64,000 nt of DNA from Candidatus Omnitrophota bacterium (GTDB lineage Bacteria > Omnitrophota > Gorgyraeia > Tantalellales > Tantalellaceae): the NCBI GenBank assembly GCA_024277375.1, contig JAJRVD010000025.1, positions 19,846-83,845 of the forward strand, written 5' to 3'. The notes beneath the pieces are model-generated. The model saw only the letters and a list, made by a program, of their open reading frames with translations. It made no database searches and was not told the origin of the DNA. A program made the position numbers and the translations under genes. This document shows positions 9,794-54,702 of the stretch, piece by piece. How positions within the stretch are numbered: the first letter of the stretch is position 1; every line of letters starts with the position of its first letter.

Positions 9794-11068
9794 CTATTTT
9801 TTCTCGACTATTTCCGCCTCATCGAGGAGAAAATCCAGTGTTTTATCTTCTCTTATCTGTTCCTCAAGCCCTCCGATAAGATCATTTTCTCTGTAGTATT
9901 CCTTAACTTTGTCGAAGGGTTGGTTATAACTGACAGCGAGATTCCTGATCCATTCCTCCGTCTCTTCGTCCGTGGACTCAACCTTCTCAATGTTCGCGAT
10001 CGCGTCGAGGATAAAATACAATTTAACTTTGTTTTCGGATTCTCTGGTAAGTTGGTCCTTTAGTTCCGCTTTATGCGATTCCATGGTCTTCTCATCTACG
10101 CCTTTCTGCTTCAATTCGTTTTCCGCTTTTTCCGTAAGCACTTTCAATTGTCTCGCGACCATAGTTTCCGGGAGGTCAAAGGCATGTTTCTTGAGCAGTT
10201 GTTCCATGATCTGATTTTTCATAGCCACTTTATCGTTGTACTGTTTTCTCTCTAAGAGTTGTGCTCGCACTTCATTCCGCGCGTCATCCATTGTTTCTTT
10301 GCCTATCTTTTTGGCAAATTCGTCATTCAACTCAGGCAGTTTTTTCTATTTCGTTTCTTTGACTTCAACCTTAAATATAGCTTTTTTGCCGGCATATTTT
10401 TCGTCAGGATAATTTTCCGGTAAAACGATCTCCATGTCTTTCCGGTCTCCTTTTTTTAGACCGATAAGCTCCTCGCCCATCCCCAGAAGAGAGGTTTCTT
10501 TGTCTGCTTCGATCCACATGTTCTCGCGTTTTTTTGAGATCAATTTATCATCCATAAAAGTTTCCACATCACAAACACCAAAATCTCCTTTTTTCATGGA
10601 TCTCTCGATATCACTAAATTCGGCATTCATGCTCTGGAACCGCTCTATGGTCTCCTCTACTTCTTTGCCTTCAACTGTTATCTTCTCTGCGGAAACTTTC
10701 AAACCCTTATATTTCTGTAACTTTATCTCCGGATGTGTATCCACTTTAGCTTTAAATTTAAGACCCCCTGAAGCTTCCATGACCACATCTGAAACCTCAG
10801 GAAGACTTACCGGCGTGATACCGTGATCGTTCAACGCCCATTGATACCCCTCGGAAACCAAACGACGTTGAACTTCATCGGTCGCTTCCTCATGATGATG
10901 TTTTTGCACAATATCCATAGGAGCTTTACCCGTCCTGAAACCCGGAATAGTCACGGTTTTACGAATATCTTCCAGCACCTCTTTATAAACTTCTTCAACT
11001 TTCTGGCTTGGGATCTCTATGTCCAACTGCCTGGACGTTCCTTTAAGTTTTTTTATCTTACCTTTCAT
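9794..11068 (-). pseudogene. tig: trigger factor (tig) interrupted by a single in-frame TAG at 10346-10348
   Basis: ORFs 10346..11068 (N-terminal ribosome-binding plus PPIase domains) and 9794..10330 (C-terminal domain) are in the same frame. Translation reads ...KVEVKETK-TAG-KKLPELNDEFAKK, collinear with the trigger-factor consensus (ELPELDDEFAK). No frameshift; combined length is 424 codons. Confidence 0.8.
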
Positions 11069-11096
11069 TGTTTTTTCCTATCGTTTTACCCCGTTA

Positions 11097-11630
11097 TTAA
11101 AATTTGGGTTCTACCAGCCCATAATTACCATCGTGCCGTTTATACAAAACATTAACCTCTCCGGTATCCGCGTTCTTAAACACAAGAAAATCTTTATCCG
11201 TATTATTCAATTCCATTTTGGCTTCTTCCGGAAGCATTGGCTTATCCGCGAACATGTTTGTCCTGATGATCTCGCCTTCTTCAGGGAAAAATACTTCTTC
11301 TTGAGACCAAAAGCGCACAAAACGATTAAACACTCTTCTTCTTCTTGAACTAGTCCTATCGCTGATCCTTCTTAACTGTTTTTTTATGCTGGTTGCCGCG
11401 CTGTCTATCGAAGCGTATACGTCTGTTGAGCTCTCTTTGGCAACTATTTTACTTCCCTTTATGTACAAGATTATCTCAACGTTCTGCCTCATCTTTTCTT
11501 CCTCGAGAACAACGTCACATGCCTGGATCCCCTTATACATGCGTTCCAGTTTTCCCAGGCGCTTTTGGATGTATCCTTTTATGTCATCACTTAACTCAAT
11601 ATTCCGTCCGGTAATATTAATATCCATCAC
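11097..11630 (-). CDS. hpf: ribosome hibernation promoting factor (long form, sigma-54 modulation protein family)
   Basis: 177 aa; RaiA/HPF N-terminal domain plus C-terminal dimerisation extension; lies downstream of lptB as in the canonical locus, but rpoN is absent. Confidence 0.88.
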   Translation of the reverse strand: MMDINITGRNIELSDDIKGYIQKRLGKLERMYKGIQACDVVLEEEKMRQNVEIILYIKGSKIVAKESSTDVYASIDSAATSIKKQLRRISDRTSSRRRRVFNRFVRFWSQEEVFFPEEGEIIRTNMFADKPMLPEEAKMELNNTDKDFLVFKNADTGEVNVLYKRHDGNYGLVEPKF

Positions 11631-11749
11631 TTAGGCTCCTTTCACATGAATAATCCGAAAAATAAGAAATATAACTATACCACTATGCGTTACGTTTTTC
11701 AATAGATTTTGACGCTATAGTTCGCCAATCTGCCTCAATTTCTCGTCAT

Positions 11750-11888
11750 TCAGACTGTGTCATACCGTAGGGGCTTGATTCAACACCGTAGGGGCTTGAT
11801 TCATCAAGCCCGTTATATCGGGTTCGATAAATCGAACCCCTACTTCGACTCGGTCTCGTCTCACTCGCTTCGCTCGTTCGCCCAGGAT
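11750..11888 (+). repeat. MITE-like element, family A, copy 3 (internal partial duplication, composite with tail module)
   Basis: GTAGGGGCTTGATTCA duplicated; the core is followed by a type-2 tail (...CGCTTCGCTCGTTCGCCCAGGATGAC); lies between hpf and lptB. Confidence 0.75.
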
Positions 11889-11946
11889 GACGTTACATTA
11901 TACAACTTACGTTCACTTCGTTCCGTAAGTTGTATAATGTAACGTC
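11889..11946 (-). terminator. type-5 long perfect hairpin (23-bp stem, loop TTCACTTCGTTC) at the lptB 3' end; candidate terminator or RNA-stability element
   Basis: GACGTTACATTATACAACTTACG-TTCACTTCGTTC-CGTAAGTTGTATAATGTAACGTC; overlaps the lptB TGA; no U-tract follows. Confidence 0.5.
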
Positions 11947-12667
11947 ACAAGCTAAATCTTTCCCCAAGGTATATCTCCCGGGCTTTAGGATCATTAATCA
12001 GTTCTTCCTTGGTTCCCGAGATGAGAATACGCCCTTCATACATGATGTATGACCTGTTCGTAATAGAAAGAGTTTCCCTCACATTATGATCCGTAAGAAG
12101 GATCCCCAGACCCATTTCTTTCAATTCACGTATAACTTCCTGGCAATCAAATACAGCTATAGGATCGATCCCGCTAAAAGGTTCATCCAATAAAATAAAC
12201 ATGGGGTTCGTAACCAGAGTTCTTGTGATCTCAAGCCTTCTTCTTTCTCCCCCTGAAAGTGTATACGCTTTATTTTTCCTGAGATGCGATATTTTCAACT
12301 GATCAAGCAACCTATCCAACTGGCTTTTCCTTTCCTTGCGGGGAAACCCCAATGTTTCCATGATCGCCATAATGTTTTCCTCAACCGTAAGTTTGCGAAA
12401 AATAGACGGCTCTTGTGACAGGTACCCTATCCCTGATCGCGCGCGTTGATGTATAGGCAGTTTCGTGATATCTTTCTGGTCAAAAATAACGTGTCCTCTA
12501 TCCGGTTTTATAATACCCGTAACCATGTAAAACGTTGTTGTCTTTCCGGCTCCGTTAGGGCCTAAAAGCCCTACCACCTCGCCTCTTCGAACATTTATGC
12601 TCACGCCTTTAACGACTCTTCTGCCGCCATATTGTTTGATTAGGTCTCTCGTCTCCAAAAGATGCAT
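11945..12667 (-). CDS. lptB: LPS export ABC transporter ATP-binding protein
   Basis: 240 aa; Walker A GPNGAGKTT, ABC signature LSGGERRR, Walker B ILLDEP; follows lptA/C; TGA stop. Confidence 0.93.
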   Translation of the reverse strand: MHLLETRDLIKQYGGRRVVKGVSINVRRGEVVGLLGPNGAGKTTTFYMVTGIIKPDRGHVIFDQKDITKLPIHQRARSGIGYLSQEPSIFRKLTVEENIMAIMETLGFPRKERKSQLDRLLDQLKISHLRKNKAYTLSGGERRRLEITRTLVTNPMFILLDEPFSGIDPIAVFDCQEVIRELKEMGLGILLTDHNVRETLSITNRSYIMYEGRILISGTKEELINDPKAREIYLGERFSL

Positions 12668-12678
12668 ATTTCTCCTTA

Positions 12679-13554
12679 TTATTGTCCCGCTATATCCGTT
12701 CCCTGAAACTCCTGAAGCTGTTCGGGCGCGATGATCACCCGGGGCTTACCTATGAGTTTAGCGCTTTTTGTGCTTTCGGTGTATATGGCCTTTTCACTGA
12801 TTGTATAGCTGTCGCCGCGCTTCACTTTTACATTGCCTTCCGCTTCGACTCTGGCAAGTTTCTGTGTTTCCCTATCAAAATAGACAACAAGTTTATCAGC
12901 GAACATCTGGCCATCTTTATCTGTTACCTTTACGTTTTCAAGAAAGACAGCCGTATTATCATCGTACCTGACTTCCATAGAACCGTCACACGTCACTATG
13001 GTGTTGGGCTCTATCACAACTTCAACATTTTGTTTTAATACTGCCCACTTCTCCTCGGAGTTCGCTACAGCACCGATACCAATCGCGACCATGCCTTCGC
13101 GTTCTACGCGCACTTTATCGGCAGTTGAGATCTCCTTGGTCAGCTGAGACCACTTGGCACTTTCAGTTATCAACACAGCCCCATCATCTGAAACAACCTC
13201 AACATTACCGATAAGCTCAACCTCTCCCTTTTCTTTACGGTAAATACCCTTGTCTGAAGTAAGATCGATCTTAGAATCATCTCCATAAGCCACTGCCTTC
13301 AGATCGTTCAGATATATGTCATCCCCTATAATTTCGGCTGAATTCCCCTCGAGATGCCACTGTTTTGCCCCCTTGGGACTTCGTCCGTCAATGACAAATG
13401 ACAACACCTTCTGCTCCAGGTCAGATCCGACTGCCGCGGAATCCCTCATAAGTGCTATTTCCGGAACACTCTGCCGGCCATATCGCACCTGATGGCTCCA
13501 CATCGCGGCCGCTATAGACGCTATTAACATTAACCATAAAAATCCTCTTCCCAT
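12679..13554 (-). CDS. lptA: LPS transport periplasmic protein, LptC-like N-terminal anchor fused to LptA/OstA-like domain
   Basis: 291 aa; N-terminal TM segment; two OstA-like beta-jellyroll regions; immediately upstream of lptB. Confidence 0.7.
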   Translation of the reverse strand: MGRGFLWLMLIASIAAAMWSHQVRYGRQSVPEIALMRDSAAVGSDLEQKVLSFVIDGRSPKGAKQWHLEGNSAEIIGDDIYLNDLKAVAYGDDSKIDLTSDKGIYRKEKGEVELIGNVEVVSDDGAVLITESAKWSQLTKEISTADKVRVEREGMVAIGIGAVANSEEKWAVLKQNVEVVIEPNTIVTCDGSMEVRYDDNTAVFLENVKVTDKDGQMFADKLVVYFDRETQKLARVEAEGNVKVKRGDSYTISEKAIYTESTKSAKLIGKPRVIIAPEQLQEFQGTDIAGQ

Positions 13555-13555
13555 G

Positions 13556-14446
13556 TTATACCTTTTTTGTTTTCCACCTATTGTGAATCCATACCCACTG
13601 GTCCGGATATTCTTTTACGTATCTTTCGAGAACATCCGTCCATTCCTGCGTATACTTTCTTACATTGTCTTCCTTGTCGCCTTCCCGCGACAAAACAATA
13701 GGTTTTTCTACGACAAATTTATACGTATTATCGGCCTTACGTATCATAAACGCCGGAAGGATATCAACGCCGGCAATCATCCCTATCTTAACCGGACCCG
13801 TAGGCGTATACGCGTCTTTGCCGAAAAATTTTACAAATACACCTTCCACGCTCTCAACATCCTGATCGGCTAACATCCCTAAGATCTGACCATCCTTAAG
13901 AGCTCTGAACATCTTTTTCGGGCTTTCATCCCTATACACAAGGTTAGCGCCAAAACGTTTACGTATACCAACGATCATTTGATCGTACTTATGAAAATAT
14001 ATCCTTTTCGCGATTATTGTTCCTCTATACCCCATCGAATGTGTATACGCGGACAACAGCTCCCAGTTCCCGAAATGAGAGACCATAACAATGACACCCT
14101 TACCTCCTTCCAATGCTCTATCCAGGTTCTCAAGGCCGCTCGTCTCTGTCACAAGACCGATCACATCTTTTTTGTCCATAGACATTAGCTTTAACCAATC
14201 CACACCGATCATGGCCATGTTCCTGAACACATCTCTTGCCAGCTTGACGTTTTCTTCGTGGCGGCCTTCAAAAACACTGTCTAAATTGGATATCGCGATA
14301 TTTCGATACTTTCCCAACAGCATAAACGCGGCTTTCCCTAAAAGATCAGCTATGAACAAACTGATGTTTCTTGGTATCAGCCGCGAGATGTAAAGAAACA
14401 ATTTTAACGCGTAATAGATGTAATACCGTCTGGTCTTGATCTTCAT
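13556..14446 (-). CDS. lpxL: lipid A biosynthesis lauroyl/myristoyl acyltransferase (LpxL/HtrB family)
   Basis: 296 aa; lysophospholipid acyltransferase fold with the HFGNWE motif and C-terminal WIHNRWK typical of LpxL/LpxM. Confidence 0.85.
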   Translation of the reverse strand: MKIKTRRYYIYYALKLFLYISRLIPRNISLFIADLLGKAAFMLLGKYRNIAISNLDSVFEGRHEENVKLARDVFRNMAMIGVDWLKLMSMDKKDVIGLVTETSGLENLDRALEGGKGVIVMVSHFGNWELLSAYTHSMGYRGTIIAKRIYFHKYDQMIVGIRKRFGANLVYRDESPKKMFRALKDGQILGMLADQDVESVEGVFVKFFGKDAYTPTGPVKIGMIAGVDILPAFMIRKADNTYKFVVEKPIVLSREGDKEDNVRKYTQEWTDVLERYVKEYPDQWVWIHNRWKTKKV

Positions 14447-14835: not shown

Positions 14836-14854
14836 TCCTGTTCCTTTTTTCTTC

Positions 14855-15035: not shown

Positions 15036-15036
15036 T

Positions 15037-15067
15037 GCAACTTACGTCACTTCGTTCCGTAAGTTGC
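15037..15067 (-). terminator. type-5 hairpin (same loop and stem core as 11889-11946) at the queE 3' end
   Basis: GCAACTTACG-TCACTTCGTTC-CGTAAGTTGC, 9 nt after the queE stop. Confidence 0.5.
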
Positions 15068-16441: not shown

Positions 16442-16476
16442 TAGCTCCTTACAAAAGAAATAAGATGCAAGATGAC

Positions 16477-16548
16477 GTAGGAGCCGCCTCCGGCGGCGAA
16501 TTGATGAATTGTTCGCGGCCCATCGCCGAAGGCGAGGCCGCTCCTACG
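16477..16548 (-). repeat. type-4 repeat (CCGTAGGAGCGGCC...CGCCGAAGGCG...GGGCCGCGAACAA)
   Basis: Long imperfect inverted repeat GTAGGAGCCGCCTCCGGCGGCG...CGCCGAAGGCGAGGCCGCTCCTAC between queC and queD; related copies are at 41611, 48466 and 61352. Confidence 0.7.
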
Positions 16549-16583
16549 AACTTTTCGCAAATGATCTTTACCTCTCTACTTCT

Positions 16584-16958
16584 TTATCTCTTGCTGTACG
16601 TCGCTGCCGACGAATCCGTTTCCCAAACCGTAACTTCCTTGATATTTATTCCGGACAGTTTTTCGGCTGCTCTCTCATATATAAACCGGGCTATATTCTC
16701 AGATGTCGGGTTAATTTCCTTAAAATCATCTAACTCATTCAAATATTTATGGTCTAACCTTTCTAAAATACCTTTCAAAATACCTTTTAGCTCGGTAAAA
16801 TCCGCCACCATACCCGTCTTATCAAGATCTTCGGAAGATGCCGAGAGCTCTACGTGCCAATTATGGCCGTGCAGTGCCTCACATTTACCTTTATACCCTC
16901 TCAGGTTATGTGCACTACTAAATCGTAATTTGACTTTAACTGTATACATATTATTCAA
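16584..16958 (-). CDS. queD: 6-carboxy-5,6,7,8-tetrahydropterin synthase
   Basis: 124 aa; PTPS fold with the zinc ligands HGHNW and the catalytic Cys/His/Glu pattern. Confidence 0.9.
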   Translation of the reverse strand: MNNMYTVKVKLRFSSAHNLRGYKGKCEALHGHNWHVELSASSEDLDKTGMVADFTELKGILKGILERLDHKYLNELDDFKEINPTSENIARFIYERAAEKLSGINIKEVTVWETDSSAATYSKR

Positions 16959-17487
16959 AGTAGCAGGCCATTATCTCGTCCCATATACCTTGGGCTTTCA
17001 TAAGAAGGTCACAAACCTCTCTTACCGCGCCGCGACCACCGTTTTTTTTGGTAAGAACGTGCGCGAACGGTTTAACATCATCCATAGCGTTAGGGGGACA
17101 TACCGCCAACCCCACTCTTTTCAAGACCGGAATATCTATGAGGTCATCTCCTACAAAACAGATCTCTTCATCATTGACTCTGAATTTTCTTTTGATCTTA
17201 TGTAACGCTTTGATCTTATAATGAAAATTATGGTAAACCTTGTCTATGCCCAGGTCTTTTGCGCGTTTAGTAACAACACGAGAACCTTTTGCTGTAAGTA
17301 TCACACATTTCATTTTGGAACGTTTTAAAAGTATTATGCCCAGCCCGTCGTTTACGTCAAAATTCTTTATCTCGTCCCCATAATTCCCATATATAATTCT
17401 GCCGTCGGTAAGCACTCCATCAACATCAAGAACAAGAACCTTTATTTTTTTTGCTCGCTCTAAAATTTCCAGTGGATATTCAGTCAT
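16951..17487 (-). CDS. kdsC: 3-deoxy-D-manno-octulosonate 8-phosphate phosphatase
   Basis: HAD-IIIA family (DVDGVLTDG, GDD motifs). Start at ATG 17485-17487 with an AAGGAA RBS; the ORF-track start at 17523 lies inside a palindromic repeat. Confidence 0.85.
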   Translation of the reverse strand: MTEYPLEILERAKKIKVLVLDVDGVLTDGRIIYGNYGDEIKNFDVNDGLGIILLKRSKMKCVILTAKGSRVVTKRAKDLGIDKVYHNFHYKIKALHKIKRKFRVNDEEICFVGDDLIDIPVLKRVGLAVCPPNAMDDVKPFAHVLTKKNGGRGAVREVCDLLMKAQGIWDEIMACYFE

Positions 17488-17544: not shown

Positions 17545-18516
17545 CTAGACCAATCCCGCTTTAAGAATATCCTGAACGTCAAGCAATCCTGCCGGTTTTC
17601 CTTTTTTATCCACAACGGGAATTTCATCAATATTTTTATCTCTAAGAACCTCAAAAGCTTCAGCAGCCAAACGTTCACCGGTGATCGACACGGGATTTTT
17701 CGTCATAACATCTTTGACCTTTTCATCCATAAAGGCCGCGCCTTTCTCAAAATGTCTTCTGAGGTCGCCGTCAGTGAATATACCGATCAATTTACCCTTA
17801 TCATCCACAACGCTTGCGCTGCCCGCGCGCATTTTTGTTATCTTAAGAAGAACATCCTTTATCCTGACATTCTGTTTTACGATCGCTGTTTTGGATTTTG
17901 GACGCATAATATCTTCAACTCGGAGCAACAGTCGTTTCCCCAACGCGCCACCGGGATGGAACAAAGCGAAATCTTTAGGTTGAAATTTCTTCTTTTCAAG
18001 AAGAGCGACAGCCAAAGCATCACCTAACGCCAGCATAGCGGTCGTGGATGTTGTCGGAGCAAGACCCAGTGGACAAGCTTCCTCGGCCACTGAACTATCA
18101 ATAACATAATCGCTATTAATCGCGAGGATAGATTTCTTATTGCCTGTAATCGCGATAAGTTTGGCACCTATCTTCTTAATGATCGGCAACAACTTAATGA
18201 CTTCTTCTGTCTCCCCGCTATTGGAAAAAGCGACAATAGCATCCCGGGATGTAACTCTGCCCAAGTCTCCGTGAAGAGCCTCGGCCGGATGCAAATAGAG
18301 CGATGGAGTCCCAGTCGAAGACATTGTCGCTGAAACCTTCTGCGCGATAAAGCCGGGTTTTCCCATGCCGGTCACTATAATGCGTCCGGTGGTTTCAGAC
18401 AACAGGTTCACTATTTTCTCAAAAGTACCATCGATCCTGTTCGCGAGAACGGCTATTGCTTTACTTTCATTAAGCAGTACCCTTTTAGCTCTTACTTTAG
18501 CGCTCAAAGACTTCAT
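17545..18516 (-). CDS. kdsD: arabinose-5-phosphate isomerase
   Basis: 323 aa; SIS domain plus tandem CBS domains, as in KdsD/KpsF. Confidence 0.9.
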   Translation of the reverse strand: MKSLSAKVRAKRVLLNESKAIAVLANRIDGTFEKIVNLLSETTGRIIVTGMGKPGFIAQKVSATMSSTGTPSLYLHPAEALHGDLGRVTSRDAIVAFSNSGETEEVIKLLPIIKKIGAKLIAITGNKKSILAINSDYVIDSSVAEEACPLGLAPTTSTTAMLALGDALAVALLEKKKFQPKDFALFHPGGALGKRLLLRVEDIMRPKSKTAIVKQNVRIKDVLLKITKMRAGSASVVDDKGKLIGIFTDGDLRRHFEKGAAFMDEKVKDVMTKNPVSITGERLAAEAFEVLRDKNIDEIPVVDKKGKPAGLLDVQDILKAGLV

Positions 18517-26755: not shown

Positions 26756-28849
26756 TTAAGACTGCTTCATAACTTCCATCAAAGCATCAACAACTTTTTC
26801 AGGTTTGATCGAAGTTATACATTTTGATCTATCCTTACACGTCGGTTTATAACAGGGTGAACACTTTAAATTTTTATATAAAACTCTCATGTCTTCTGAC
26901 GGAGGAATATGCCTGTCGGGGTCTGTGGGACCAAAAAGGGCCACAAACGGCGTCCCGGTAGCGGCCGCCACATGCATAGGCGCGCTATCTCCCGTAACTA
27001 AAGCGTTACATCTCTCAATAAGGCTGATGAGTTGTGGAACATTCGTCTTCCCCACCGCGTCTATGGGTTTCGCTTCCGTCTTTTTGAGAAATTCCGCGGC
27101 ACACGGCCTGTCTTCTTCCGCCCCTAAAAGGACGACTCTCATCCCCTTATCACGAGCAAGTATCCGCGCCAATTCCACCATAGCCGGTACTCCCCAGTTT
27201 TTTGTCTCCCATCGTCTCGAGGCGGATAAGCTTAGAGCAACCAGTTTTTGTCCTTCTATCATCCATCGTTCTTTTAGAAACCTTTCGGCCCAAGCCTCAT
27301 TCGCGTCACCCGGCCATAATTCCAGGTTTTGTTTGATGCCTGTAATACCAAGAAGCCCCAAAACAAAGCTTTGATGTTTCACCGGTGTCATGGGTCTCCT
27401 CGGAACGCTGATTTTACGATTAAGAAGGAAACTTAACTTGCCATTATCATAGCCGAATCTTTCGGGTATCGCGCTTAAAAAAGAAAGAAGATGACTCTTG
27501 CGATTATTCTGAAGATCTATCGAAACATCAAAATCCTCTGCTCTTAATTTTCCGGCTAATTTTAAAAATCCGATCCCATTATCCCTGTTTTTAAAGTCAC
27601 CGGCAATGATCTCGTCGATATAGGGACAGTTGTCCAACAGCTCCCTGAAACGCACATCAACGAGGATCTTAATATTAGCGTTTTTAAAGCGGTTTCTAAC
27701 AGCGCGCAGCGAGGGAGTGCTGAGAATAATATCACCGAGCGAACTTATTTTAAAAATAAGTATATTTTTCAGACCAAAAACACGTTTGTACGCTTCCAGC
27801 GTCATAGTCATCGTTTTTTCCAGAGAATAATTCTCTTCCACATATTTCCTGGCATTTTCGGCAACTTTCATGACCAGATCGGGTTCCTCGGCATAACGCA
27901 TGATCTTGGCGGCCATATCGGTTGGATCTTTTGGCGCGCAGAAGAGACCCGTCAAACCATCATTTATATTTTCCACAACACCACCTATTCTGGTAGCTAC
28001 AACCGGAACACCCCTGGCCTGTGCCTCGATAATCGACCTTCCAAAAGCTTCCTGTTCACTGTTTGCGGAAACCAGGACATCTAACCCTCCAATAACATCC
28101 GCTACATCTTTAGTGCTATCAACAAATTTCACCGATCTTTCGATCATCAGGCGACGCATCGTAAGGCTGATCCTTCTAAGATACTCCTCCTTAGCGGACG
28201 TTCTGTCTCCCATCATAACGATCTCAACATCAGGGATCTTACGCAAAACGTGCGCCATGGCTTTCAGAAAATCCACATGACCCTTTAGCGGTGTAAACCG
28301 ACATATCATTCCTACCCGAAAAGGCTTACTTCTCGCGGCCGACGGGGGGACAAAGGAAAATTTCTTAAGATCCACGCCCCGGGGAATAATAGTGATCTTT
28401 TGCCGGGGTACATTGAAATTATCTTTCATGTACCTGGCCATCGTCTCATTGGCGGTAATAACAACTTTTCCCCACCCCATAACTTTACTGATCAGATGTT
28501 TTCTATATTGACCATGCGCGGTTGTAACAAATGTCTTCTGCAAAGAACGAGCGGCAAAGTAACCTATAAGTGCCGGAACCCTGCTTCTGCCGTGTACAAT
28601 ATCTATACTGTCCTTTCGAATGATATGCCTGAGCTTAAAGTAACAACGTATCATGACTAAAGGATTCTTACTGCCTACAGGAAGCGTATAATGGCGTCCC
28701 CCGATAGCGCTGAGATCTTTCTCCATGCGGCCACCTGCCGAGACCACTACCGCTTTATGACCGTTAAGGGTTAAGTACCGGGCGACTTCTATGGTCCCCT
28801 TCTCTACTCCACCGACATTAAGTTTTGGAACTAACTGTAAAATATTCAT
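26756..28849 (-). CDS. bifunctional glycosyltransferase: N-terminal GT4 fused to C-terminal GT9 heptosyltransferase
   Basis: About 700 aa; residues ~1-370 are GT4 (EAFGRSIIEAQARGVP); residues ~375-712 are GT9 (ILIFKISSLGDIILSTPSL ... GDSAPMHVAAA). Start set at MNILQLV to avoid overlap with the upstream gene. Confidence 0.75.
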   Translation of the reverse strand: MNILQLVPKLNVGGVEKGTIEVARYLTLNGHKAVVVSAGGRMEKDLSAIGGRHYTLPVGSKNPLVMIRCYFKLRHIIRKDSIDIVHGRSRVPALIGYFAARSLQKTFVTTAHGQYRKHLISKVMGWGKVVITANETMARYMKDNFNVPRQKITIIPRGVDLKKFSFVPPSAARSKPFRVGMICRFTPLKGHVDFLKAMAHVLRKIPDVEIVMMGDRTSAKEEYLRRISLTMRRLMIERSVKFVDSTKDVADVIGGLDVLVSANSEQEAFGRSIIEAQARGVPVVATRIGGVVENINDGLTGLFCAPKDPTDMAAKIMRYAEEPDLVMKVAENARKYVEENYSLEKTMTMTLEAYKRVFGLKNILIFKISSLGDIILSTPSLRAVRNRFKNANIKILVDVRFRELLDNCPYIDEIIAGDFKNRDNGIGFLKLAGKLRAEDFDVSIDLQNNRKSHLLSFLSAIPERFGYDNGKLSFLLNRKISVPRRPMTPVKHQSFVLGLLGITGIKQNLELWPGDANEAWAERFLKERWMIEGQKLVALSLSASRRWETKNWGVPAMVELARILARDKGMRVVLLGAEEDRPCAAEFLKKTEAKPIDAVGKTNVPQLISLIERCNALVTGDSAPMHVAAATGTPFVALFGPTDPDRHIPPSEDMRVLYKNLKCSPCYKPTCKDRSKCITSIKPEKVVDALMEVMKQS

Positions 28850-28850
28850 A

Positions 28851-30800
28851 TTAGAATAATCTGTACATCCTCTCGTACATCCGTTTATCATCATCAGGCA
28901 AAACGGTTTCGTTTTTGTCTTCTATGGCGCGAATCGTTTCTTTTCTTATCTCGCCCGCCTCTATACATTTGACGTATCCGTTCTTCGCGAGATCATTGAC
29001 AAACCGTTCATACTTGGTGACTTTCCTGGTTTTTTTCTCGGGCATGAAAACCAGGGTTGGCTTCCCGGAAGATACTGCCTCCGAAACCATCGAAATGCTT
29101 TCTCCCGAAACAACAACAACATCACTTTTCGCTAATATTTTTTCAACTGTATTTTTATCCTTATCTTGCACGCCTGAAACAAACTTACCTTTCACCTCTT
29201 TATTCTCAATATTTTCTTTGAGAATCGCTTCAATCTCTTTCGGTGTTCTTCGTGATGTAGTCACGTAAAAACCGCCCTCTATACCGACACACGCGTCACG
29301 TATTCCATCCGCTACAACTTTTGCCAGATCCTCGCCAAAACTGAAATGCGGATTGTCTCCGCCAAACAGCAAGCCAATACATTTTCGCTTGTCATCTGAC
29401 CCGCCCACCGTAGCTTCAGCGAGAGTGGGAGCCTCTATGTGTGCTTTTAGCCCTTCAGGGTCTATAAGATTAGGGGCTAGTTCCGTAACTATCACATTAT
29501 CTCTAACTTTTCCGCGCTGGTCATGTTTTGGCATAACTACAAGGTCAAAGCTCCTGCGATTGCCCCATCCCGGATCAAGCACAGTTACGTTTCGGGCATT
29601 ATTCTCTATTTTTATCATTTTATTAACCCCGAACAGTGTAGATCCGCAACTTATTATAACATCACCATACCGGCTACTTAGAACCTCGTAGCTTTCATTA
29701 GAAAGCGCCCGCTTTAAACATTTTAAACATCCCTGACAACGCCTGGTAAAAAACGGACTTATAGCGTTAAAAACAGCCTTGGCCCGCTTGCTTTTAAACT
29801 GAACTCTGAGGATATCAACTTCAACTTCCCCCTGCCGAAACCCTTCGTCTCTCCTATACATCTCGATCTGTTTAACAACCGCCAACGACTGTTTAAGATG
29901 CCCCTTTTTACCATCGTCCAGAACCATGATCTTTTTAACGGGGGTCAACTTCCATCTCTTATGCATCCAGAACCACTGTTCGGGATACGCCCTTATGTGC
30001 TTTTCGAGAAGCTTATTGTACCTTCGAGCATAAAGAGTAACATCCTCATCTTTTCCGACAACCATGGGTTCTTCCAGGATCAATTCCTGATAAGGTCCCT
30101 TGACCCGGTGAATAAACGCCGGTAATACCCATGCTCCGCTCTTTTGAGCGAATCGGTATGGACCAATGGCTGTTGATGCCGGCCGTCCGAAAAAATCTAT
30201 AAGCTTACCGCTGGTACCCGCGTTTTGATCCGCGAGAAGGCCCACGCTTCTCCCTTCACGAAGAAGCCGGAACATCCTCTTGATATCCATCCCCTTGCGA
30301 ATTACGGTAGCTCCTTTTGATTCCCGCAGCTGATTAAAAAGCTCATTAAGCCTTTTCATTTTCTGCTCTCGCGCCAAAATACACAATGTGTATCCCTTAA
30401 TAGCGCTTGCCGCCGTACTTAATTCCCAATTCCCAAAGTGCGCGGAAACCATTATCATACCCTTCGGGTTTTTCGATGCTTTCTCTATCCTTTCCATATT
30501 TTGGATCTTTATGTATTTATCAACATACTTCTCATCGACCTTTGTCAAAGAAACAAGTTCGGCAAAAGTCTGTGCCATATGTCTGTAAACACCTTTTGAG
30601 ATATGCTTTATCTCTTTTGGTGTTTTCTCCCGGCAGAATGCCGCTTTGAGGTTGGCATATGTTATCCCTATTCTCTTTCCACTCAAAAGACGCACAAGAT
30701 CCCCAAGACACCTGCCCAACCAAAGGTTAAATCCTATCGGCATGACATGAAGAAACCGGTTCAATCCCCTAACCAGAAATGACGCTATTAAGTCCAGCAC
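28851..30800 (-). CDS. LpxL-family lipid A acyltransferase fused to ELM1/DUF1022-like GT-B domain
   Basis: 649 aa; N-terminal ~290 aa are LpxL/HtrB-like (HFGNWE, WFWMHKRWK); C-terminal ~350 aa match the mitochondrial-fission ELM1-like bacterial family (TTSRRTP ... SMVSEA motifs). Confidence 0.7.
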   Translation of the reverse strand: MLDLIASFLVRGLNRFLHVMPIGFNLWLGRCLGDLVRLLSGKRIGITYANLKAAFCREKTPKEIKHISKGVYRHMAQTFAELVSLTKVDEKYVDKYIKIQNMERIEKASKNPKGMIMVSAHFGNWELSTAASAIKGYTLCILAREQKMKRLNELFNQLRESKGATVIRKGMDIKRMFRLLREGRSVGLLADQNAGTSGKLIDFFGRPASTAIGPYRFAQKSGAWVLPAFIHRVKGPYQELILEEPMVVGKDEDVTLYARRYNKLLEKHIRAYPEQWFWMHKRWKLTPVKKIMVLDDGKKGHLKQSLAVVKQIEMYRRDEGFRQGEVEVDILRVQFKSKRAKAVFNAISPFFTRRCQGCLKCLKRALSNESYEVLSSRYGDVIISCGSTLFGVNKMIKIENNARNVTVLDPGWGNRRSFDLVVMPKHDQRGKVRDNVIVTELAPNLIDPEGLKAHIEAPTLAEATVGGSDDKRKCIGLLFGGDNPHFSFGEDLAKVVADGIRDACVGIEGGFYVTTSRRTPKEIEAILKENIENKEVKGKFVSGVQDKDKNTVEKILAKSDVVVVSGESISMVSEAVSSGKPTLVFMPEKKTRKVTKYERFVNDLAKNGYVKCIEAGEIRKETIRAIEDKNETVLPDDDKRMYERMYRLF

Positions 30801-37787: not shown

Positions 37788-39302
37788 TTAAAAGACTCCT
37801 TTTCTGACCATATCAAGAAATATATCCGTAAGCCGGGGGTCAATTTTGTGACCTTTTTCATTTTCCATTATCGCTACCGCCTCATCGATAGAGAACTTTT
37901 CGCGATATGGCCTGTCTGCAGTTAACGCCTCATATATATCGGCTATGCTTAATATCCGCGCTTCCAGTGGGATCCGCCATCCCTTTCGTCCTTTAGGATA
38001 ACCCGAACCATCAAAATTTTCGTGGTGATTTACAATGATAGGTATGGTCTTACGCAGAAAATAGATCAGCCGTGCCATCTCGGCACCCCAGTAAGAATGC
38101 ATCTTCATCTGTCGAAACTCATTTTTTGTCAGCTGTTCTTTTTTGAACAAGATACTCTCTTCTACACCCAACTTCCCTATATCATGCAGAAGCGCTGCCA
38201 CTTTAAGCCTTTCTGTCTTCACTTTACTCAGTTTGATCTTTTTCGCCAGACTGGCGGCAAAGGTCTTAACCCTAGCAGAATGTTCAGCCACCCATGGCTC
38301 ACTTCTCATGCCGGCATCGAACAGTATACCCATCATTTCAAGATGCGCCGCATGCAGCTCTTTCGATGAAAGAGTATGACTTTTCGCGCTACTATCTACC
38401 GGATCCTCCTTTTCTCTTCCGACAAACATATAAAACACGGTTTTCTCTTCTTTTATGGGCACCACCAACCAGGAGATATATTTCCCGGAGACACCGGACG
38501 CGACAACAGGCATATCAAATTTAAAAAGCCTGTTTTTTCTTTTCATCTCTTTATTTATTTTCCACGCGTCGCCTCGCGCAGATTCGGGTATTATACCATT
38601 GATCCAGGACCGATTCATGATATCGTTTTCAAGAAGAGAGAACGCGGTTAAATATTTTTTGTTCACAAAAACAACCTGACCTTCGTTATCCACGAGCATT
38701 ACAGGGTATTTTATGTTCTGCAGCAATCTTTCAGAAAAATAACCCCAAAGAACGGTATTCTCTTCTAACCCCCGGCCTCTACCCTGTCGTCCTTCAAGGC
38801 GGTTACGCATAATATTCTTCACGCGATCTAAAACGATCGTAAGATCGAGTCCCGTAGTATCTATGTGATAGTTCGCTTTCTTGTAATATGGCCGACGATA
38901 TTCCAGAAGTTCTCTTATCATTTTCCGAGGATCATCAACTTCAAGAAGCGGCCTATGCGCATATTCTTTCGTTCTATCGTATATGGCGTCAACATCAGCC
39001 CATAGACATATAACAACACCAGTCCTACGAAGATCCTTCATATTTTGCCGATTCAAAACTACTCCACCGCCGGTGTCGATCACCTGATCCAATTTTGCCG
39101 AAACCTCTTTTACAACTTCTCGCTCGACCGTTCTGAAATATTCTTCACCTTCATCTCTGAAAATATCAGAAATAAGTTTGTCCTCCCGTATCTCTATGAG
39201 ATTGTCTACACTGACGTATTCCTTGCCCGTATCGTGAGCAAGCGCTTTGGCGATCTCGGTTTTCCCGGATCCCATAAAGCCTACAAGTACAATATTTTTC
39301 AT
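37788..39302 (-). CDS. shikimate kinase fused to PAS-like sensor and HD-GYP phosphodiesterase domain
   Basis: 504 aa; residues 1-175 are a complete AroK (GFMGSGKT Walker A, conserved shikimate-binding pattern); middle ~150 aa are PAS-like; the C-terminus carries HDIGK ... HHENFDGSGYP (HD-GYP signature). Confidence 0.75.
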   Translation of the reverse strand: MKNIVLVGFMGSGKTEIAKALAHDTGKEYVSVDNLIEIREDKLISDIFRDEGEEYFRTVEREVVKEVSAKLDQVIDTGGGVVLNRQNMKDLRRTGVVICLWADVDAIYDRTKEYAHRPLLEVDDPRKMIRELLEYRRPYYKKANYHIDTTGLDLTIVLDRVKNIMRNRLEGRQGRGRGLEENTVLWGYFSERLLQNIKYPVMLVDNEGQVVFVNKKYLTAFSLLENDIMNRSWINGIIPESARGDAWKINKEMKRKNRLFKFDMPVVASGVSGKYISWLVVPIKEEKTVFYMFVGREKEDPVDSSAKSHTLSSKELHAAHLEMMGILFDAGMRSEPWVAEHSARVKTFAASLAKKIKLSKVKTERLKVAALLHDIGKLGVEESILFKKEQLTKNEFRQMKMHSYWGAEMARLIYFLRKTIPIIVNHHENFDGSGYPKGRKGWRIPLEARILSIADIYEALTADRPYREKFSIDEAVAIMENEKGHKIDPRLTDIFLDMVRKGVF

Positions 39303-39504: not shown

Positions 39505-40632
39505 TTACATACTTTTTAGTTGCTCCAAATATCCCTCGTAATTCCGGCGGATCTCTTTCATGGAGTCTCCGCCAAACTTCTCTAAAAATACGGCGCCAAT
39601 TTCTATAGCCACAGCCGCTTCGGCGATAACACCGCAAGCCGGAACCGCGGTTACATCAGAACGCTCCGTAGCGGCTTCCGCTTCCTTCTTCGTATCGATA
39701 TCAACAGTTTTTAACGGACTTGCCAAAGTCGCTATGGGCTTCATAAAAGCCTTTACTACAACCGGAGCTCCATTCGTAACTCCGCCCTCTATTCCTCCGG
39801 CATTGTTAGATTCTCGCGTGAACATTCTCCCCAAACTATCATATCCTATCGGATCATGCGTGAGCGAGCCCTTTCGCTACGCGCATTCTATTCCCTTTCC
39901 TATCGAAACCGCCTTTACCGCGGGTATTGCCATAACGGCACGTGCTATCCGACCATCCAACCTTCTGTCCCACTGCGCGTATGTCCCCAATCCCGGAGGG
40001 ATTTCAAGTACCGCGATCTCGATGGTACCACCCAAAGTATCACCGCAAATTTTCGCGTTATCAATGATCTTACGCATACTTTTCGCGGCATTCTTGTCCG
40101 CGCATCTAAGATCTGAAACTTCAGCGATCTTTTTTATTTCATCAAAGAAAAGTCCGTCGGTTTCCGCCTCGACGTTTCCTATCGCGGTAACATGGCTCAT
40201 TACATCAATACCAAATTCTTTAAATATCAATTTCGCGACAGCACCAACAGCGACTTTTATCGCTGTCTCTCGTGCCGAGGCTCTCTCCAGAACATCCCGG
40301 GCGTCTCCAAGAGCATATTTCTGCACACCGGCCAGATCGGCATGTCCGGGACGAGGACATTTTACATCAGGAAGTTTATCGATCTTATGATCCTTATTGC
40401 GTATCAAAAGCCCCACAGGACTGCCTATAGTAAACCCGCCTCGAATGCCGGTCACTACTTCGACCTTATCCCTCTCGATCTTCATCCGGCCGCCTCTACC
40501 ATACCCTACCATACGCCGGGTGAGCTCTTTGTTGATGAATTCTTCATCCATTTTGAGACCCGCGGGCACGCCGTCCAAAACCGCCATTAATCCCTTGCCG
40601 TGGGATTCTCCCGCAGTCATATACCTTAGCAT
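39505..40632 (-). pseudogene. aroC: chorismate synthase (aroC) interrupted by a single in-frame TAG at 39877-39879
   Basis: ORFs 39877..40632 and 39505..39834 share a frame. Read-through gives ...SIGKGIECA-TAG-RKGSLTHDPIGYDSLGRMFTRESNNAGGIEGG, collinear with the AroC consensus (GxGFxxAxxxGSxxxDxI...RSNxAGGIxGG). Total 376 codons. Confidence 0.8.
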
Positions 40633-41684: not shown

Positions 41685-41885
41685 GTCATTCAGACTGTAT
41701 CATAATGTAGGGGCTTGATTTATCAAGCCCGTTATATCGGGTTCGATGAATCGAACCCCTACAATATGTTGTATGCGACCATCCGTAAAACGAATTACGA
41801 CACATCCTTAACCGAGGACATCGTTCCCGAGTAAGTCCCGGGACCAGAGGTTCTCGGGAAAGGGCCGAGTCAAAGGATCTCTTAT
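41685..41885 (+). repeat. MITE-like element, family A, copy 10 (composite with type-2 tail)
   Basis: Core plus arms at 41685-41806, then a tail ending GGGCCGAGTCAAAGGATCTC; lies between pilD and aroE. Confidence 0.82.
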
Positions 41886-42784
41886 TTGTCTCTCTTCAAC
41901 TCCGCCAAAACCGCTTCTTTCATAACTTTTTTCGTCTCTTCAAGAGGCTTCCCCGTCCATATATTAAAAGCAATGGCCGCCTGGTTGATCAGCATACCCA
42001 ATCCATTAACCGCTGTGAGCCCTTGTTCTTTCGCGGTTTTTAGAAGCCTCGTTTCCCGGGCATAGACAAGATCATATACTGTCATCCCCTCTCTTAAACA
42101 CTCAAGAGGAACAGCCGAACGATCATCCCCCTCTTTCGTTCCGATCGGGGTCGCGTTTACAACAAGTTCGCATTAGGCCATTCTTCCGGAAATATCTTTT
42201 GCCTCAACAGGGACGCACGCGTCCGGCCCAAACTGCTTCTTGCAAACAGTTGCCAATTGACAAAGTAGATCCTCTTGCGAATCATAAAGAAATATTTCTT
42301 CAGGTGCCGCCTCACCGATAGAAGCAAGATACATGCACAGAGCTCGCCCCGCCCCGCCGGATCCAAACAGAAAAACCTTTTTACCTTTGGGGTCAAATCC
42401 CGCGTCTTCTTGCAATGATTGATAAAACCCTTCCACGTCAGTATTATACCCCTTAACCTTTTCACCATCACTCCTGACGGTATTGACAGCACCCAGCAAT
42501 TCCGCTTCGCTATCTATAGTACACTTCTGTCCGGATTTCAGCATATCAAACACGGCTATCTTATAAGGTACCGTAACATTAATACCACCAATATTGTTGT
42601 CCTTGATAAGACTCAAGAAATCCTTATCTATATGTTTTGCTCTGGTGTCAAAATCTCTATCGAAAAGTTTATATTCGGTTGGTATGCCAAAATGGGCAAG
42701 CGCCGCATTATGCATGACGGGAGACAAAGAATAGCTTATATTCTTCCCAAGAAGACCGTATACTTTAGCGTTGACGTTCGACAT
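41882..42784 (-). pseudogene. aroE: shikimate dehydrogenase (aroE) interrupted by a single in-frame TAA at 42173-42175
   Basis: ORFs 42173..42784 (N-terminal substrate domain; Rossmann GSGGAGRA) and 41882..42085 are in the same frame. Read-through gives ...DISGRMA-TAA-CELVVNATPIGTKEG...MTVYDLVY..., matching the AroE consensus DLVVNATxxGM. Confidence 0.8.
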
Positions 42785-52000: not shown

Positions 52001-53844
52001 TTTTGTGTTCCCCCCCTTAATATCCTGTCTCCCTCTCTGATCTCTTCCAGTTTTATCAACATATCATCTCTCAAGCCCTCTTGTGGCTTTGGTCTTGCGC
52101 GGCTGACCACTACAAAAAGATCATCCCCCCACTTCTCTTTGAACAACTCCACGCCGGGAGCAGCATTTCTCCAATCTTTTATCATTTTTTCTATTCGCAA
52201 CAACTTCTCATTCTCCTCAATAAAATCCATCCCATCCATATTCTTTTTTATGTTCCGGATAGTTTTGGCCAACTCTATTACGTTATCGGTAAAGTCTTCC
52301 GAAGACACATCCGCGAATCCATCCACTTTTGCCAGACCCGTCAACTGTTCAAACAGATCCACGCCATAGGCAAAATCCCTGTCTCCACCTTTTTCTATTC
52401 GGTCTCCTTCCATAGCAAGATTAATTATTTCCATAGCGTCCATATCCATGCTCTCGCTGTGTTTAATGCTATATGCCGCGCCTGTTTCATGTATTAAAAC
52501 TTCCGCTAATTGCGTATAATCTTGTAACAAATCCGGGTTCAGATATATCGTTTCGTAACTGGCATGGCCACTTACAGGTATTGACTTGTTCCAAATTTGT
52601 ATGTCCTGTTTCATGATAAAATCTATCTGGGATTCTTCTAACCTTAAACTACGAAGAGCAGCTTTTAGTTCCTCCAGGTCTTCGCCCTGCTCCCCAAACT
52701 TATGCATTCCTGCCTCTTTCCCTAATGCGTCTATCCATACTTCATGCTGCAGATACGTCATCGTGTCACCGTCTACAAGAACAATGTCTATGAAGTCCGC
52801 CATACGCCGAATATCCTTATCTGTTTCTACGTAAATATCGACCCCTATTAGAAGCCCTACATCCATAGCAAACCCGGTATCCGAATGTCTTGGTGCTATG
52901 TATGTGGTATCATAATCGGCCGAATGAATGTCTATCCACCCAAACTTGGTCTTAATCGTCAACGTTTCGTTTTTGGCTAACGCTTCCGCTGCCTTGACCA
53001 TCAACTCCATCATATTTTTATTTCTCACATCTATACCCATCTCAGAAAACAGGCTCTGTACGGCTATGGTAGAAGCTCCGGGGGTATAAGAGACCGCTTT
53101 GGTTATAAGCTCCTCGAAGGGCGACTTTTCGCCCGCCAGAAGAGCAAAATACGGACTGTCTTCCTCAACTTGAAGGCGTGGCATTACCTCGATGTATGAG
53201 TATCCTTCTTTTTCAAAGAGTTCCGCCAGGTTTTCCGTATGGAATCCCCCTGTTACAAGAACGGCTATTTTTTTGTCACCGAACTTAGCTCCGATATTCT
53301 TTAAAAACGCGTCATCCCTTTTGAATGCATAGTCATAGAATCCTTCCATATGTTCTCTATAGGAATCTAGTTTTGCTATACCAGAAGGAGTTGTTAGTTT
53401 CAGGCCGTACTGCGGAGCCTTCGCGTCAAAAAAGGCGGTAAAACATTTAACTCCGAACCCGTCTCTGTTGGCCTTGTAATACTCATACTTGTCCCTGACA
53501 AGTGAAAGTGCGAAGAGATCCTTAAGTATGCTCAGTTTTTTTGAAAGTTCGATGAGCCTCTCCTGATCAGGAGTTTTCGCGAACGTCTTCATAAGAGCCT
53601 CTTCTATTTTCCGTACGTCCTTATTAAGGGACGCTTTATCAATATGTTCATAATTTTTCACATATTCAGCATATTTAACAAGGTTGGGCAACTTGCTAAA
53701 GTCTACCGACGCGAATTCCGCTTTCTTAAAAAGATATACATAAAAATCTTCGGATGAAATGTCACCGGTCTTGAACGCGATGGTCTTAACAGCCAGACGT
53801 TTGGCGGCTTTTCTGGATAGTTTTTTGGTAAGTTTATCGATCAA
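49012..53844 (-). CDS. giant hypothetical protein (1,610 aa in this ORF)
   Basis: Uninterrupted 4.8-kb ORF with coding-like composition and no recognisable catalytic motif; a rho-independent terminator follows at 48925-48967. The ORF-track start is a TTG with no RBS, and the ORF is in frame with the upstream ORF 53959..54702. Confidence 0.6.
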   Translation of the reverse strand: MIDKLTKKLSRKAAKRLAVKTIAFKTGDISSEDFYVYLFKKAEFASVDFSKLPNLVKYAEYVKNYEHIDKASLNKDVRKIEEALMKTFAKTPDQERLIELSKKLSILKDLFALSLVRDKYEYYKANRDGFGVKCFTAFFDAKAPQYGLKLTTPSGIAKLDSYREHMEGFYDYAFKRDDAFLKNIGAKFGDKKIAVLVTGGFHTENLAELFEKEGYSYIEVMPRLQVEEDSPYFALLAGEKSPFEELITKAVSYTPGASTIAVQSLFSEMGIDVRNKNMMELMVKAAEALAKNETLTIKTKFGWIDIHSADYDTTYIAPRHSDTGFAMDVGLLIGVDIYVETDKDIRRMADFIDIVLVDGDTMTYLQHEVWIDALGKEAGMHKFGEQGEDLEELKAALRSLRLEESQIDFIMKQDIQIWNKSIPVSGHASYETIYLNPDLLQDYTQLAEVLIHETGAAYSIKHSESMDMDAMEIINLAMEGDRIEKGGDRDFAYGVDLFEQLTGLAKVDGFADVSSEDFTDNVIELAKTIRNIKKNMDGMDFIEENEKLLRIEKMIKDWRNAAPGVELFKEKWGDDLFVVVSRARPKPQEGLRDDMLIKLEEIREGDRILRGGTQNHYYQAKKSNVTSNKFAYGRGVEGLDNKEYKRWIEKPLKDGLTTSYQFDDGEIVQSYVKTDGKTGETFKQNETPGLVPAQMRLLVEVIGGLPNRTSLLKDVQIIIVPGLRSGHYGVSRAQIYLPQELFDAGNLEEISRQLYHEVKERSDVIEGLDEFAQLDLVAEEQARADGEEFTRDKKVTEAIAVLAAESHQGLLHREAVGIYGSDFLDLEGGEGKKLFDEIVKMSSLDLVARDVADMLRRNSMERASNIDVLNNQNLTDLTKYTMHQNDGVIYINPRYLNAPEEVVSIRAKANELIRAFEEMQLSAWYGNMFFNGKTVRVAFRLIEGLRYMQDDMGKLLNHNREQMTKRMEKELLKKIGINETLDAKTVVNKIIEFVLADISSGQNIAIPFAEKELRPSDTAGIMDGIYFEAGKLYISPQLIKNTEDKDVPKLIQDIVLMYAQTISLNKILYDGNLPDHKFKNLDDTILARLLAQSPFGKRGDVNLAEGIYGDAAIARDWGAPARKAEDAVVSFLEKYNIRESTRQDKILKLAKKILSPQGEKLVEESTARAEISGLSDKENAFALILTQRFKDAVILAEEIYSLNAARIFPDNYKEVFKAESDIVGFLEMNDITDIERQNMVLARAKEIIASEGDGPQMFKVIPDADETIESIASRMVEDLLPGDMSSVVFNGVRLVATSDDTADGIIRRYHNIRKQFLDELEAVDVVEFNVTDDSVTIDGSKPYEGNKDEVKEAMTKGVEASAMDVAEVMSKDLPPCYGIIAGGKPEGVTQVEFASRLTALKSSGNNFIAEHDLGKEGNIRLRNTMGTNEAEKIIREAIDAFKGEDDSRTRIDLQIARSVLEELEKLEALKDLTREKSVEDFLNENTMLTIWKDKENAEDPAAVMPYGSLMGVSFANLNLGHVANLAKENRATPKDQEDAVRLKARALARATNNANSIEDFEKELVEAFNSKGIGDFVKIVFNLALPAITKVDMGMIKEIFAATSEVWRSV

Positions 53845-53958
53845 AGCCCGACGTTCCCTGTTGGCTTTTTTAAAATCAATAGACTTTTCGTCCCCAAGCA
53901 GTTTAAGAAGAGCATTAACATCCGCGTGTTGCTCAATATCTACACCGTTAGCCTTACT

Positions 53959-54702
53959 TTACTTCGCTAGAAAAGTTACATATTCTTTAAACTCAATTTT
54001 TTTCCCATTATATGCCATACGTTTTCCATCAACAACTTTAAGAGCCGACGTGTATATCTTGCGCTTTAAATTACTCATCCCGTTCTCTAAAAATTTTAGG
54101 TATCTATCGGCATCCTCTTTAAACGCCAGCGAACTCCTGTAAGCGTTTAAGTTTCCAAAATATAACTCTTCATTTTCGATCCCTGAAAGCTCGATCTTGT
54201 ATGGATTGTTTATAGCGAAGAATTCGGCACCTGTAACACGTCCGGCTTTCACAAATAAGTCGGATACCTGTTCTCTTACCTGTCGGTCACGTATGTCGGT
54301 AAACATCGACAGGTCATACTCGCCCGCTCCCCCTTCAAGAAACGCGAGATCCGCGCCATAAGCTTCATTGGTATACTTCATGAGGTTGGCGATAGATCGT
54401 TGGGCGGAATAGTTACAATGGGCGTCCTGGATGTGGATGATCGTTTTACCATTCTCACCGGAGATCCTGCGTTTTATCTCTCCAAAACGTAGCGGCACCG
54501 TAGAGGAGGCGGGGTCGAATTCCTCCCGGGCATATACCTCGCCTCCCGGGATACCGGCAATAATTCCCGGCACCTCGACAGCAGCGATGGCTCTAGCCAG
54601 ATCCGCGCCTATCATTGTGAACGAAAAAGAACACAGCGTAATTATCGCGAATGTTCTCATCAGCGTCTTTCTGAGACCGGTTTTATTATTAGAATAACAC
54701 AT
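53959..54702 (-). CDS. hypothetical secreted protein (possible N-terminal part of the giant protein)
   Basis: 247 aa; N-terminal signal/TM segment; strong AGGAGGA RBS before ATG 54702; same frame as 49012..53844, separated from it by one TAA plus 38 stop-free codons. Confidence 0.55.
   Translation of the reverse strand: MCYSNNKTGLRKTLMRTFAIITLCSFSFTMIGADLARAIAAVEVPGIIAGIPGGEVYAREEFDPASSTVPLRFGEIKRRISGENGKTIIHIQDAHCNYSAQRSIANLMKYTNEAYGADLAFLEGGAGEYDLSMFTDIRDRQVREQVSDLFVKAGRVTGAEFFAINNPYKIELSGIENEELYFGNLNAYRSSLAFKEDADRYLKFLENGMSNLKRKIYTSALKVVDGKRMAYNGKKIEFKEYVTFLAK

Follow-up and report, generated by a model that had tools for sequence, protein, structure and literature searches.

Four genes in a 64,000-nucleotide stretch of a Candidatus Omnitrophota genome (contig JAJRVD010000025.1 of assembly GCA_024277375.1; the whole stretch is called the window below) were each found to be interrupted by one in-frame stop codon while being otherwise intact. 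The genes encode trigger factor (tig) and chorismate synthase (aroC), each interrupted by TAG, and shikimate dehydrogenase (aroE) and a giant protein without an assigned family, each interrupted by TAA (Table 1). These four single stops had been pointed out in a sequence-only reading of the window, and they were confirmed by a six-frame scan combined with profile searches. The explanation favored here, with about even confidence, is that they are four recent nonsense point mutations, private to this lineage, which are subject to the standard genetic code and real in the sequenced population.

All six frames of the window were searched for pairs of open segments, each 50 codons or longer, parted by a single stop. 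There were 12 such pairs on the gene-bearing minus strand, and four of these were left inside genes after the translations had been read. Among the pairs that were set aside, cdsA/dxr at 2325, kpsF/kdsC at 17545, and two glycosyltransferase genes at 26756 were ordinary neighboring genes in the same frame. Four of the ~54 genes in the window (7%) are therefore affected, the share that had been estimated initially. In Pfam scans of ~50 further open reading frames (ORFs) the profiles were covered completely, with no gene among them split or frameshifted.

Table 1. Positions in the window of the interrupted genes, their stop codons, the sequence contexts of the stops, and two other genes
Feature	Position	Strand	Description
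tig (trigger factor)	9794..11068	-	full length but for one stop
In-frame TAG in tig	10346..10348	-	codon 241 of 424
aroC (chorismate synthase)	39505..40632	-	otherwise intact
In-frame TAG in aroC	39877..39879	-	codon 252 of 375
aroE (shikimate dehydrogenase)	41882..42784	-	otherwise intact
In-frame TAA in aroE	42173..42175	-	codon 204 of 300
Giant ORF, ~1,900 codons	49012..54702	-	no Pfam family matches
In-frame TAA in giant ORF	53959..53961	-	253 codons before, 1,648 after
CGAA context	10326-10358	-	CGAAATAG
CGAA context	39867-39889	-	TAGCGAAAG
CGAA context	42163-42185	-	TAATGCGAAC
CGAA context	53949-53971	-	CGAAGTAA
aroK fused to PAS and HD domains	37788..39302	-	Pfam SKI, PAS, and HD_5 all complete
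comF-like gene	57149-57904	+	only gene not on the minus strand

The stop in tig sits where the peptidyl-prolyl isomerase (PPIase) and C-terminal domains join. When the stop was replaced by X, the translation matched TIGR00115 in one stretch (349 bits), with residues 12-415 aligned to positions 2-410 of the 410 in the profile. Its homologs were 414-442 aa long, mostly ~423 aa, and none of the 119 had a stop at this column, which was occupied by E in 84, K in 10, V in 6, and Q in 5. A change of GAG to TAG is thus the most likely origin. Identity to the homologs was 0.585 downstream of the stop and 0.581 upstream, a ratio of 1.007 as compared to 0.985 for pairs of homologs. All of the downstream residues that are invariant in the homologs were kept, and the number of deviations at columns with at least 95% conservation was one, equal to the homolog median in what is a test of low power.

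Analysis of aroC gave a similar result. The translation with X at the stop matched NF003793 in one stretch (400 bits, positions 1-343 of 344). The column of the stop was G in 37, S in 32, A in 19, Y in 7, and F in 4 of 114 homologs, none of which had a stop there. All 67 invariant columns were kept, 25 of them downstream of the stop, and the same low-power count of deviations at conserved columns was again one, the homolog median. Identity to the homologs was 0.638 downstream and 0.670 upstream, and the ratio of 0.95 is close to that found in homolog pairs (0.92).

In aroE the stop precedes the conserved NATP motif by six codons. The translation with X matched TIGR00507 in one stretch (positions 1-265 of 270), and the invariant residues downstream of the stop (G215, D238, Y241, G261, and Q268) were all kept. 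None of the 76 homologs had a stop at this column; E was found in 14, D in 13, S in 10, and K in 9. The nearest relatives had E, and GAA to TAA is the likely origin. The initial description of genes with no frameshift and no other decay was therefore upheld, as invariant residues beyond the stops were retained and identity downstream was as high as upstream.

The giant ORF encodes a membrane helix at its N terminus and a conserved domain with HIQDAHCNYSAQ. It belongs to a large, uncharacterized family, with 310 related stretches in JGI metagenomes and lengths of ~900 to more than 2,200 codons. The members of this family share the N-terminal membrane helix and a domain with HIQDAHCNYSAQ and LEGGxGxYDL motifs, and they too lack a Pfam match. 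Eighty of the 310 stretches were fetched (loci L012-L091), in addition to loci L001-L005. In 79 of the 80 the frame was open across the equivalent of the stop, for hundreds to at least 2,000 codons, and the giant ORF and its relatives align collinearly on both sides. Among 58 relatives, the column of the stop was K in 26, followed by M, S, A, T, and N in 4 each. None of the 58 had a stop there, and the closest had K, so that AAA to TAA is likely to have been the change. Because the frame is open in nearly all loci and K is found at the column, the fourth stop is genuinely in-frame. The first canonical start beyond it is 38 codons on, within a conserved block.

A normal gene boundary at the TAA at 53959 had also been considered, and this candidate was overturned by the DNA-level scan of the JGI loci. 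A protein search with the 247-aa N-terminal fragment had returned only short, broken, or contig-truncated homologs and no full-length giant proteins, and in three relatives (L001, L002-4, and L005/L020) a small ORF stands ahead of a giant ORF that is in another frame. Together, these results gave the misleading impression of two genes, and the word-indexed protein search seems to cover giant proteins poorly.

Breaks of the giant ORF in relatives were located at 1863-3020 in L001, 8001-8705 in L002, 5311-5885 in L020/L005, and 1572 in L056. The first ~400 codons contain three of them (L001, L002-4, and L020) and are possibly a hot spot or a tolerated split point. The breaks in L001 and L002-4 are frame changes, that in L020 is a 1-nt insertion relative to the 91%-identical L012, which gives a stop and then a new ATG, and in L056 a Tyr column is occupied by an in-frame TAG. 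The N-terminal domain of the giant ORF was modeled poorly by AlphaFold, with a predicted local distance difference test (pLDDT) score of 51.

This family also provided a baseline for the density of in-frame stops. The ~326 kb of family sequence in the 80 loci contained one homology-verified single in-frame stop (L056), while the window contained four per 57 kb of coding sequence, well above the baseline, in a comparison for which the window had been selected for being odd. A wider census of in-frame stops in the fetched loci was swamped by antisense shadow ORFs, and the plus-strand giant-ORF cases alone were usable.

Origin of the four stops

In order to describe the stops expected from point substitution, every single-base change was applied to the 19,018 codons of the window. 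Stops were created by 2.8-4.2% of these substitutions, and the new stops were TAG (37-41%), TAA (35-41%), and TGA (21-24%), with codons for Lys, Glu, Tyr, and Leu as the main sources. The observed stops, two TAG and two TAA at columns of Glu, Glu, Lys, and Gly/Ser/Ala/Tyr, match this model, and the composition of the four stops is therefore not unusual; the absence of TGA has a chance of ~0.37. Unlike the composition, the density of the stops and the absence of frameshifts are unusual. Two specific mutational signatures were also considered. Deamination of C to T was a poor fit, since the stop columns are not Q, W, or R, and a G:C-to-T:A oxidative signature fit two or three of the four stops and was not significant.

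As the relatives compared all lack a stop at the four columns, the stops are derived and private to this lineage. They may represent four independent, lineage-specific, single-base nonsense substitutions. Translation would end at each stop and yield truncated trigger factor, chorismate synthase, and shikimate dehydrogenase, and only the N-terminal 247 residues of the giant protein. The stops would then be real in the cells, not consensus errors, and would abolish function. Such alleles would be very young, either recent pseudogenes under relaxed selection or deleterious alleles in a dominant clone. Omnitrophota are thought to include host-dependent nanobacteria, and relaxed selection would be plausible for a host-dependent lineage that takes up aromatic amino acids externally. 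The conserved domains that are cut by the stops are continuous in orthologs, in the form of one hidden Markov model (HMM) stretch each for the three profiled genes and an uninterrupted frame in 79 of the 80 giant-ORF loci. Two of the four stops lie within a three-gene shikimate cluster, of which the third gene, aroK, is intact. This clustering (p ~0.02 by target size, in a post hoc test) would fit relaxed selection on a single pathway, but other pathways, such as lipopolysaccharide (LPS) synthesis, which takes up ~35% of the window, could equally be struck twice.

Several findings weigh against recent nonsense mutation. Each of the four lesions is a nonsense mutation and frameshifts are absent, although they are a usual part of natural gene inactivation. 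If 30-45% of natural point-lesion pseudogenes are nonsense, as in the Salmonella and E. coli literature, the chance of four in four is ~0.01-0.04. The initial judgment that the pattern is unusual was thus partly retained: the mix of stops fits random substitution and is less strange than was supposed, and the all-nonsense composition is mildly unusual. No older, multiply damaged pseudogenes were found in the 64 kb, so that all of the inactivations would need to be recent, and no sign of relaxed selection was seen downstream of the stops, which fits very recent inactivation only. In addition, relatives usually retain tig and the shikimate genes. Finally, the alleles are known from one assembly, since identity to the closest database proteins, from Omnitrophota metagenome-assembled genomes (MAGs), is no higher than 72% for aroC and 65% for tig.

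The main alternative, less likely than real alleles, is that the stops are substitution errors in the consensus or assembly, resulting from low coverage, polishing, or some substitution-only process, in which case the cells probably keep sense codons (GAG, TCG or similar, GAA, and AAA). The protein fragments made by the stops (251, 240, 203, 247, 1,610, and 178 aa) are recorded as predicted products of one 87,523-nt NCBI contig, and the stops therefore belong to the public assembly. No second assembly of the species was found in a collection of 15 billion proteins, and thus no independent assembly contradicts an error. The genome has no deposited protein annotation, is outside the GTDB species representatives, and may be a low-quality MAG. 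Consensus error would also account for the type and source spectrum of the stops, which is that of unselected random substitution, and it automatically gives genes with no downstream decay and no frameshifts.

However, four unselected nonsense errors would need ~100-140 substitutions in 57 kb, or ~0.2%. Normal short-read consensus error is far below this, and the implied rate is orders of magnitude beyond that of short-read or HiFi assemblies. Assemblies from error-prone long reads are rich in homopolymer indels. The window has 166 homopolymer runs of at least 6 nt, 59 of them of at least 7 nt, yet it contains zero N and no frameshifted gene among ~54. This indicates that the assembly is accurate for indels, which rules out an unpolished long-read consensus, and an error rate of ~0.2% is hard to square with such an assembly, so real alleles are favored. 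There was also no sign of homopolymer errors, and no excess of odd residues at the conserved columns of aroC and tig, a comparison of low power.

The only 4-mer common to all four stops within 10 nt was CGAA. Its register varies (-5, -5, +3, and +5), unlike that expected of a motif-specific miscall, and 2.3% of random four-site sets share some 4-mer. CGAA was considered as a methylation or miscall motif and as a recoding signal, but its presence near the stops (p ~0.02, in varying register) is probably a coincidence.

Termination and decoding

Genes in the window end in TAA (31), TAG (12), or TGA (10; n = 53). The individual terminators that had been listed from the sequence were all found to be correct: TAA for dxr, uppS, purA, and serA; TAG for cdsA, the aminotransferase gene, and ilvH; and TGA for rseP and lptB. 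No tRNA, tmRNA, or rRNA gene was found in the 64 kb, and no Rfam family was found at the gathering threshold.

It is unlikely, though of interest, that UAA and UAG (UAR) are partially read through in this lineage and that the four genes stay functional. An ochre-type suppressor tRNA (anticodon UUA), which reads both UAA and UAG, or weakened termination by RF1/RF2 could be responsible. Selection would then hardly act on nonsense mutations at tolerant positions but would continue to remove frameshifts. In agreement with this, the four in-frame stops are exclusively UAR, never UGA, frameshifts are absent, there is no decay downstream of any stop, the stops are at variable or moderately conserved columns, and the genes that were struck are normally retained in relatives. 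On the other hand, the lack of TGA is well within chance, as calculated above, TAA is the most common terminator and TAG is also in regular use, and the window provides neither a tRNA nor an Rfam element. In-frame back-up stops at natural terminators were in no clear excess, with 14 within three codons compared to 12 and 8 in the other frames. The base right after the stop is not constant (A, C, T, and A), and no common RNA structure was found in the 100 nt after each stop (fold z-scores of -2.4, +0.3, -1.2, and -0.1).

The stops are found in no relative, which contradicts a conserved programmed read-through. The four explanations that had been proposed initially (consensus error, segregating nonsense alleles, recent pseudogenization, and programmed read-through) were therefore narrowed rather than decided, with the conserved form of the last one removed. 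The bacterial stop-codon changes known so far are all changes of UGA; no bacterial change of UAA or UAG was found when more than 250,000 genomes were screened (PMC8629427). The same screen ascribed spurious stop-codon inferences to pseudogenes or contamination (PMC8629427). A search of the literature on stop codons in Omnitrophota brought up nothing about recoding or pseudogenes in the phylum.

It is very improbable that these are split genes working as two polypeptides, with the downstream part translated by re-initiation. In favor of this, the stop in tig is at the junction of the PPIase and C-terminal domains, that in the giant ORF is just past the conserved N-terminal domain, and in L001, L002-4, and L005/L020 the giant ORF is also interrupted in the first ~400 codons. 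However, none of the stops is followed by a start codon with a ribosome-binding site; the nearest downstream canonical starts lie within conserved blocks, at distances of 5, 15, ~34, and 38 codons. Furthermore, the stops in aroE and aroC interrupt single catalytic domains, the giant ORF is continuous in all but one of the 80 relatives, and the break in L020 is a plain 1-nt insertion relative to L012.

Genome-wide reassignment of TAG and/or TAA, for which the sole support is the presence of these codons in-frame in conserved genes, was rejected, because TAA and TAG are working terminators that close 43 genes at the C-terminal ends of family profiles, and because the in-frame sites align to differing residues: E/K (tig) and G/S/A/Y (aroC) for TAG, and E/D/S/K (aroE) and K (giant ORF) for TAA. 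In-frame stops also occur only four times in the 19,018 codons. This agrees with the earlier argument against reassignment, and as judged from the sequence the organism appears to read the standard bacterial code.

Gene content of the window

Profile scans indicated that the gene repertoire is that of a typical diderm bacterium, and all but one of the genes (~53 of 54) are on the minus strand. Genes of general function include rseP, dxr, cdsA, uppS, purA, serA, clpP, tig, and hpf. Those for LPS and 3-deoxy-D-manno-octulosonate (Kdo) are lptB, lptC/A, lpxL, kdsA, kdsB, kdsC, kpsF, lpxK, waaA, several heptosyltransferase genes, and lptF/G. The window also contains queC, queE, queF, topA, dprA, and xerC/D; aroK (in a PAS and HD fusion), aroC, pilD, aroE, and the one giant ORF; and leuA, ilvC, ilvH, ilvB, alr, pfk, ahcY, and metK. 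A comparison of aroC to the GTDB species representatives found only distant relatives, with identities of at most 66%. The low identity of the top database matches for aroC and tig indicates that this lineage has no sequenced close relative.

Several other features were observed. GC skew is negative throughout the window (1-64000; -0.09 to -0.25) without a switch, and gene orientation is extremely biased. Unusual fusions are found on the minus strand at 37788-39302, 26756-28894, 28851-30800, and 12679-13554; the fused pairs are shikimate kinase with PAS and HD domains, a GT4 glycosyltransferase with a GT9 heptosyltransferase, an LpxL-like acyltransferase with an ELM1-like domain, and LptC with LptA. 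Two long ORFs without a family match, one at 16465-17205 on the plus strand, antisense to kdsC/queC, and one at 57397-57930 on the minus strand, antisense to the comF-like gene, are probably shadow ORFs and not genes.

Comparison to known systems and significance

The interrupted genes resemble the young single-lesion pseudogenes of bacteria that recently became host-restricted or bottlenecked, such as Salmonella Typhi, Shigella, and Sodalis, in which intact conserved genes carry one point lesion each, orthologs are intact, biosynthetic genes are among the targets, and a few percent of genes are affected. They differ in that all four lesions are nonsense, with no frameshift, insertion sequence (IS) insertion, or deletion, and in that they are known from 64 kb of one MAG contig. 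They also resemble the 'internal stop' consensus errors of draft and metagenome assemblies, which are isolated stops with no other damage and a random-substitution spectrum. Unlike the usual errors of this kind, they would require a substitution rate of ~0.2% without indels in 166 long homopolymers, which is atypical of the common sequencing platforms.

In known reassignment systems, UGA encodes Trp or Gly in Mollicutes, Absconditabacteria, and Gracilibacteria, and TAG encodes Gln in crAss-like and Lak phages (PMC8629427; PMC9523058). The window has in common with these systems the presence of in-frame stop codons in conserved genes. The reassigned codon in such systems is frequent in-frame, is gone from gene ends, stands for a single amino acid, and is read by a cognate tRNA, whereas in the window TAA and TAG are the main terminators, the residues differ from site to site, and there are four sites only. 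A further likeness is to amber and ochre suppression in E. coli sup strains, under which UAA and UAG nonsense alleles would persist with function kept. Unlike those strains, the window shows no suppressor tRNA, no signature of back-up stops, and no shift in terminators. Nonsense suppression is found in laboratory strains and mobile elements; it is not known to be a stable property of any wild lineage.

These data indicate that the four stops are an ordinary kind of feature at an unusual density, and not a discovery as they stand. If they are errors, the contig serves as a caution for the reconstruction of pathways from this MAG. Read-through of UAR is the only case that would be of broad importance, since it would mean that a wild bacterium decodes UAR ambiguously, possibly as an early step toward a UAR reassignment that has never been seen in bacteria. 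If the alleles are real, as is favored here, then the loss of chorismate synthase, shikimate dehydrogenase, trigger factor, and a giant surface-type protein from the sequenced population is very recent. The window would then provide a snapshot, of modest and local interest, of the first step in gene loss and in dependence on external aromatic amino acids.

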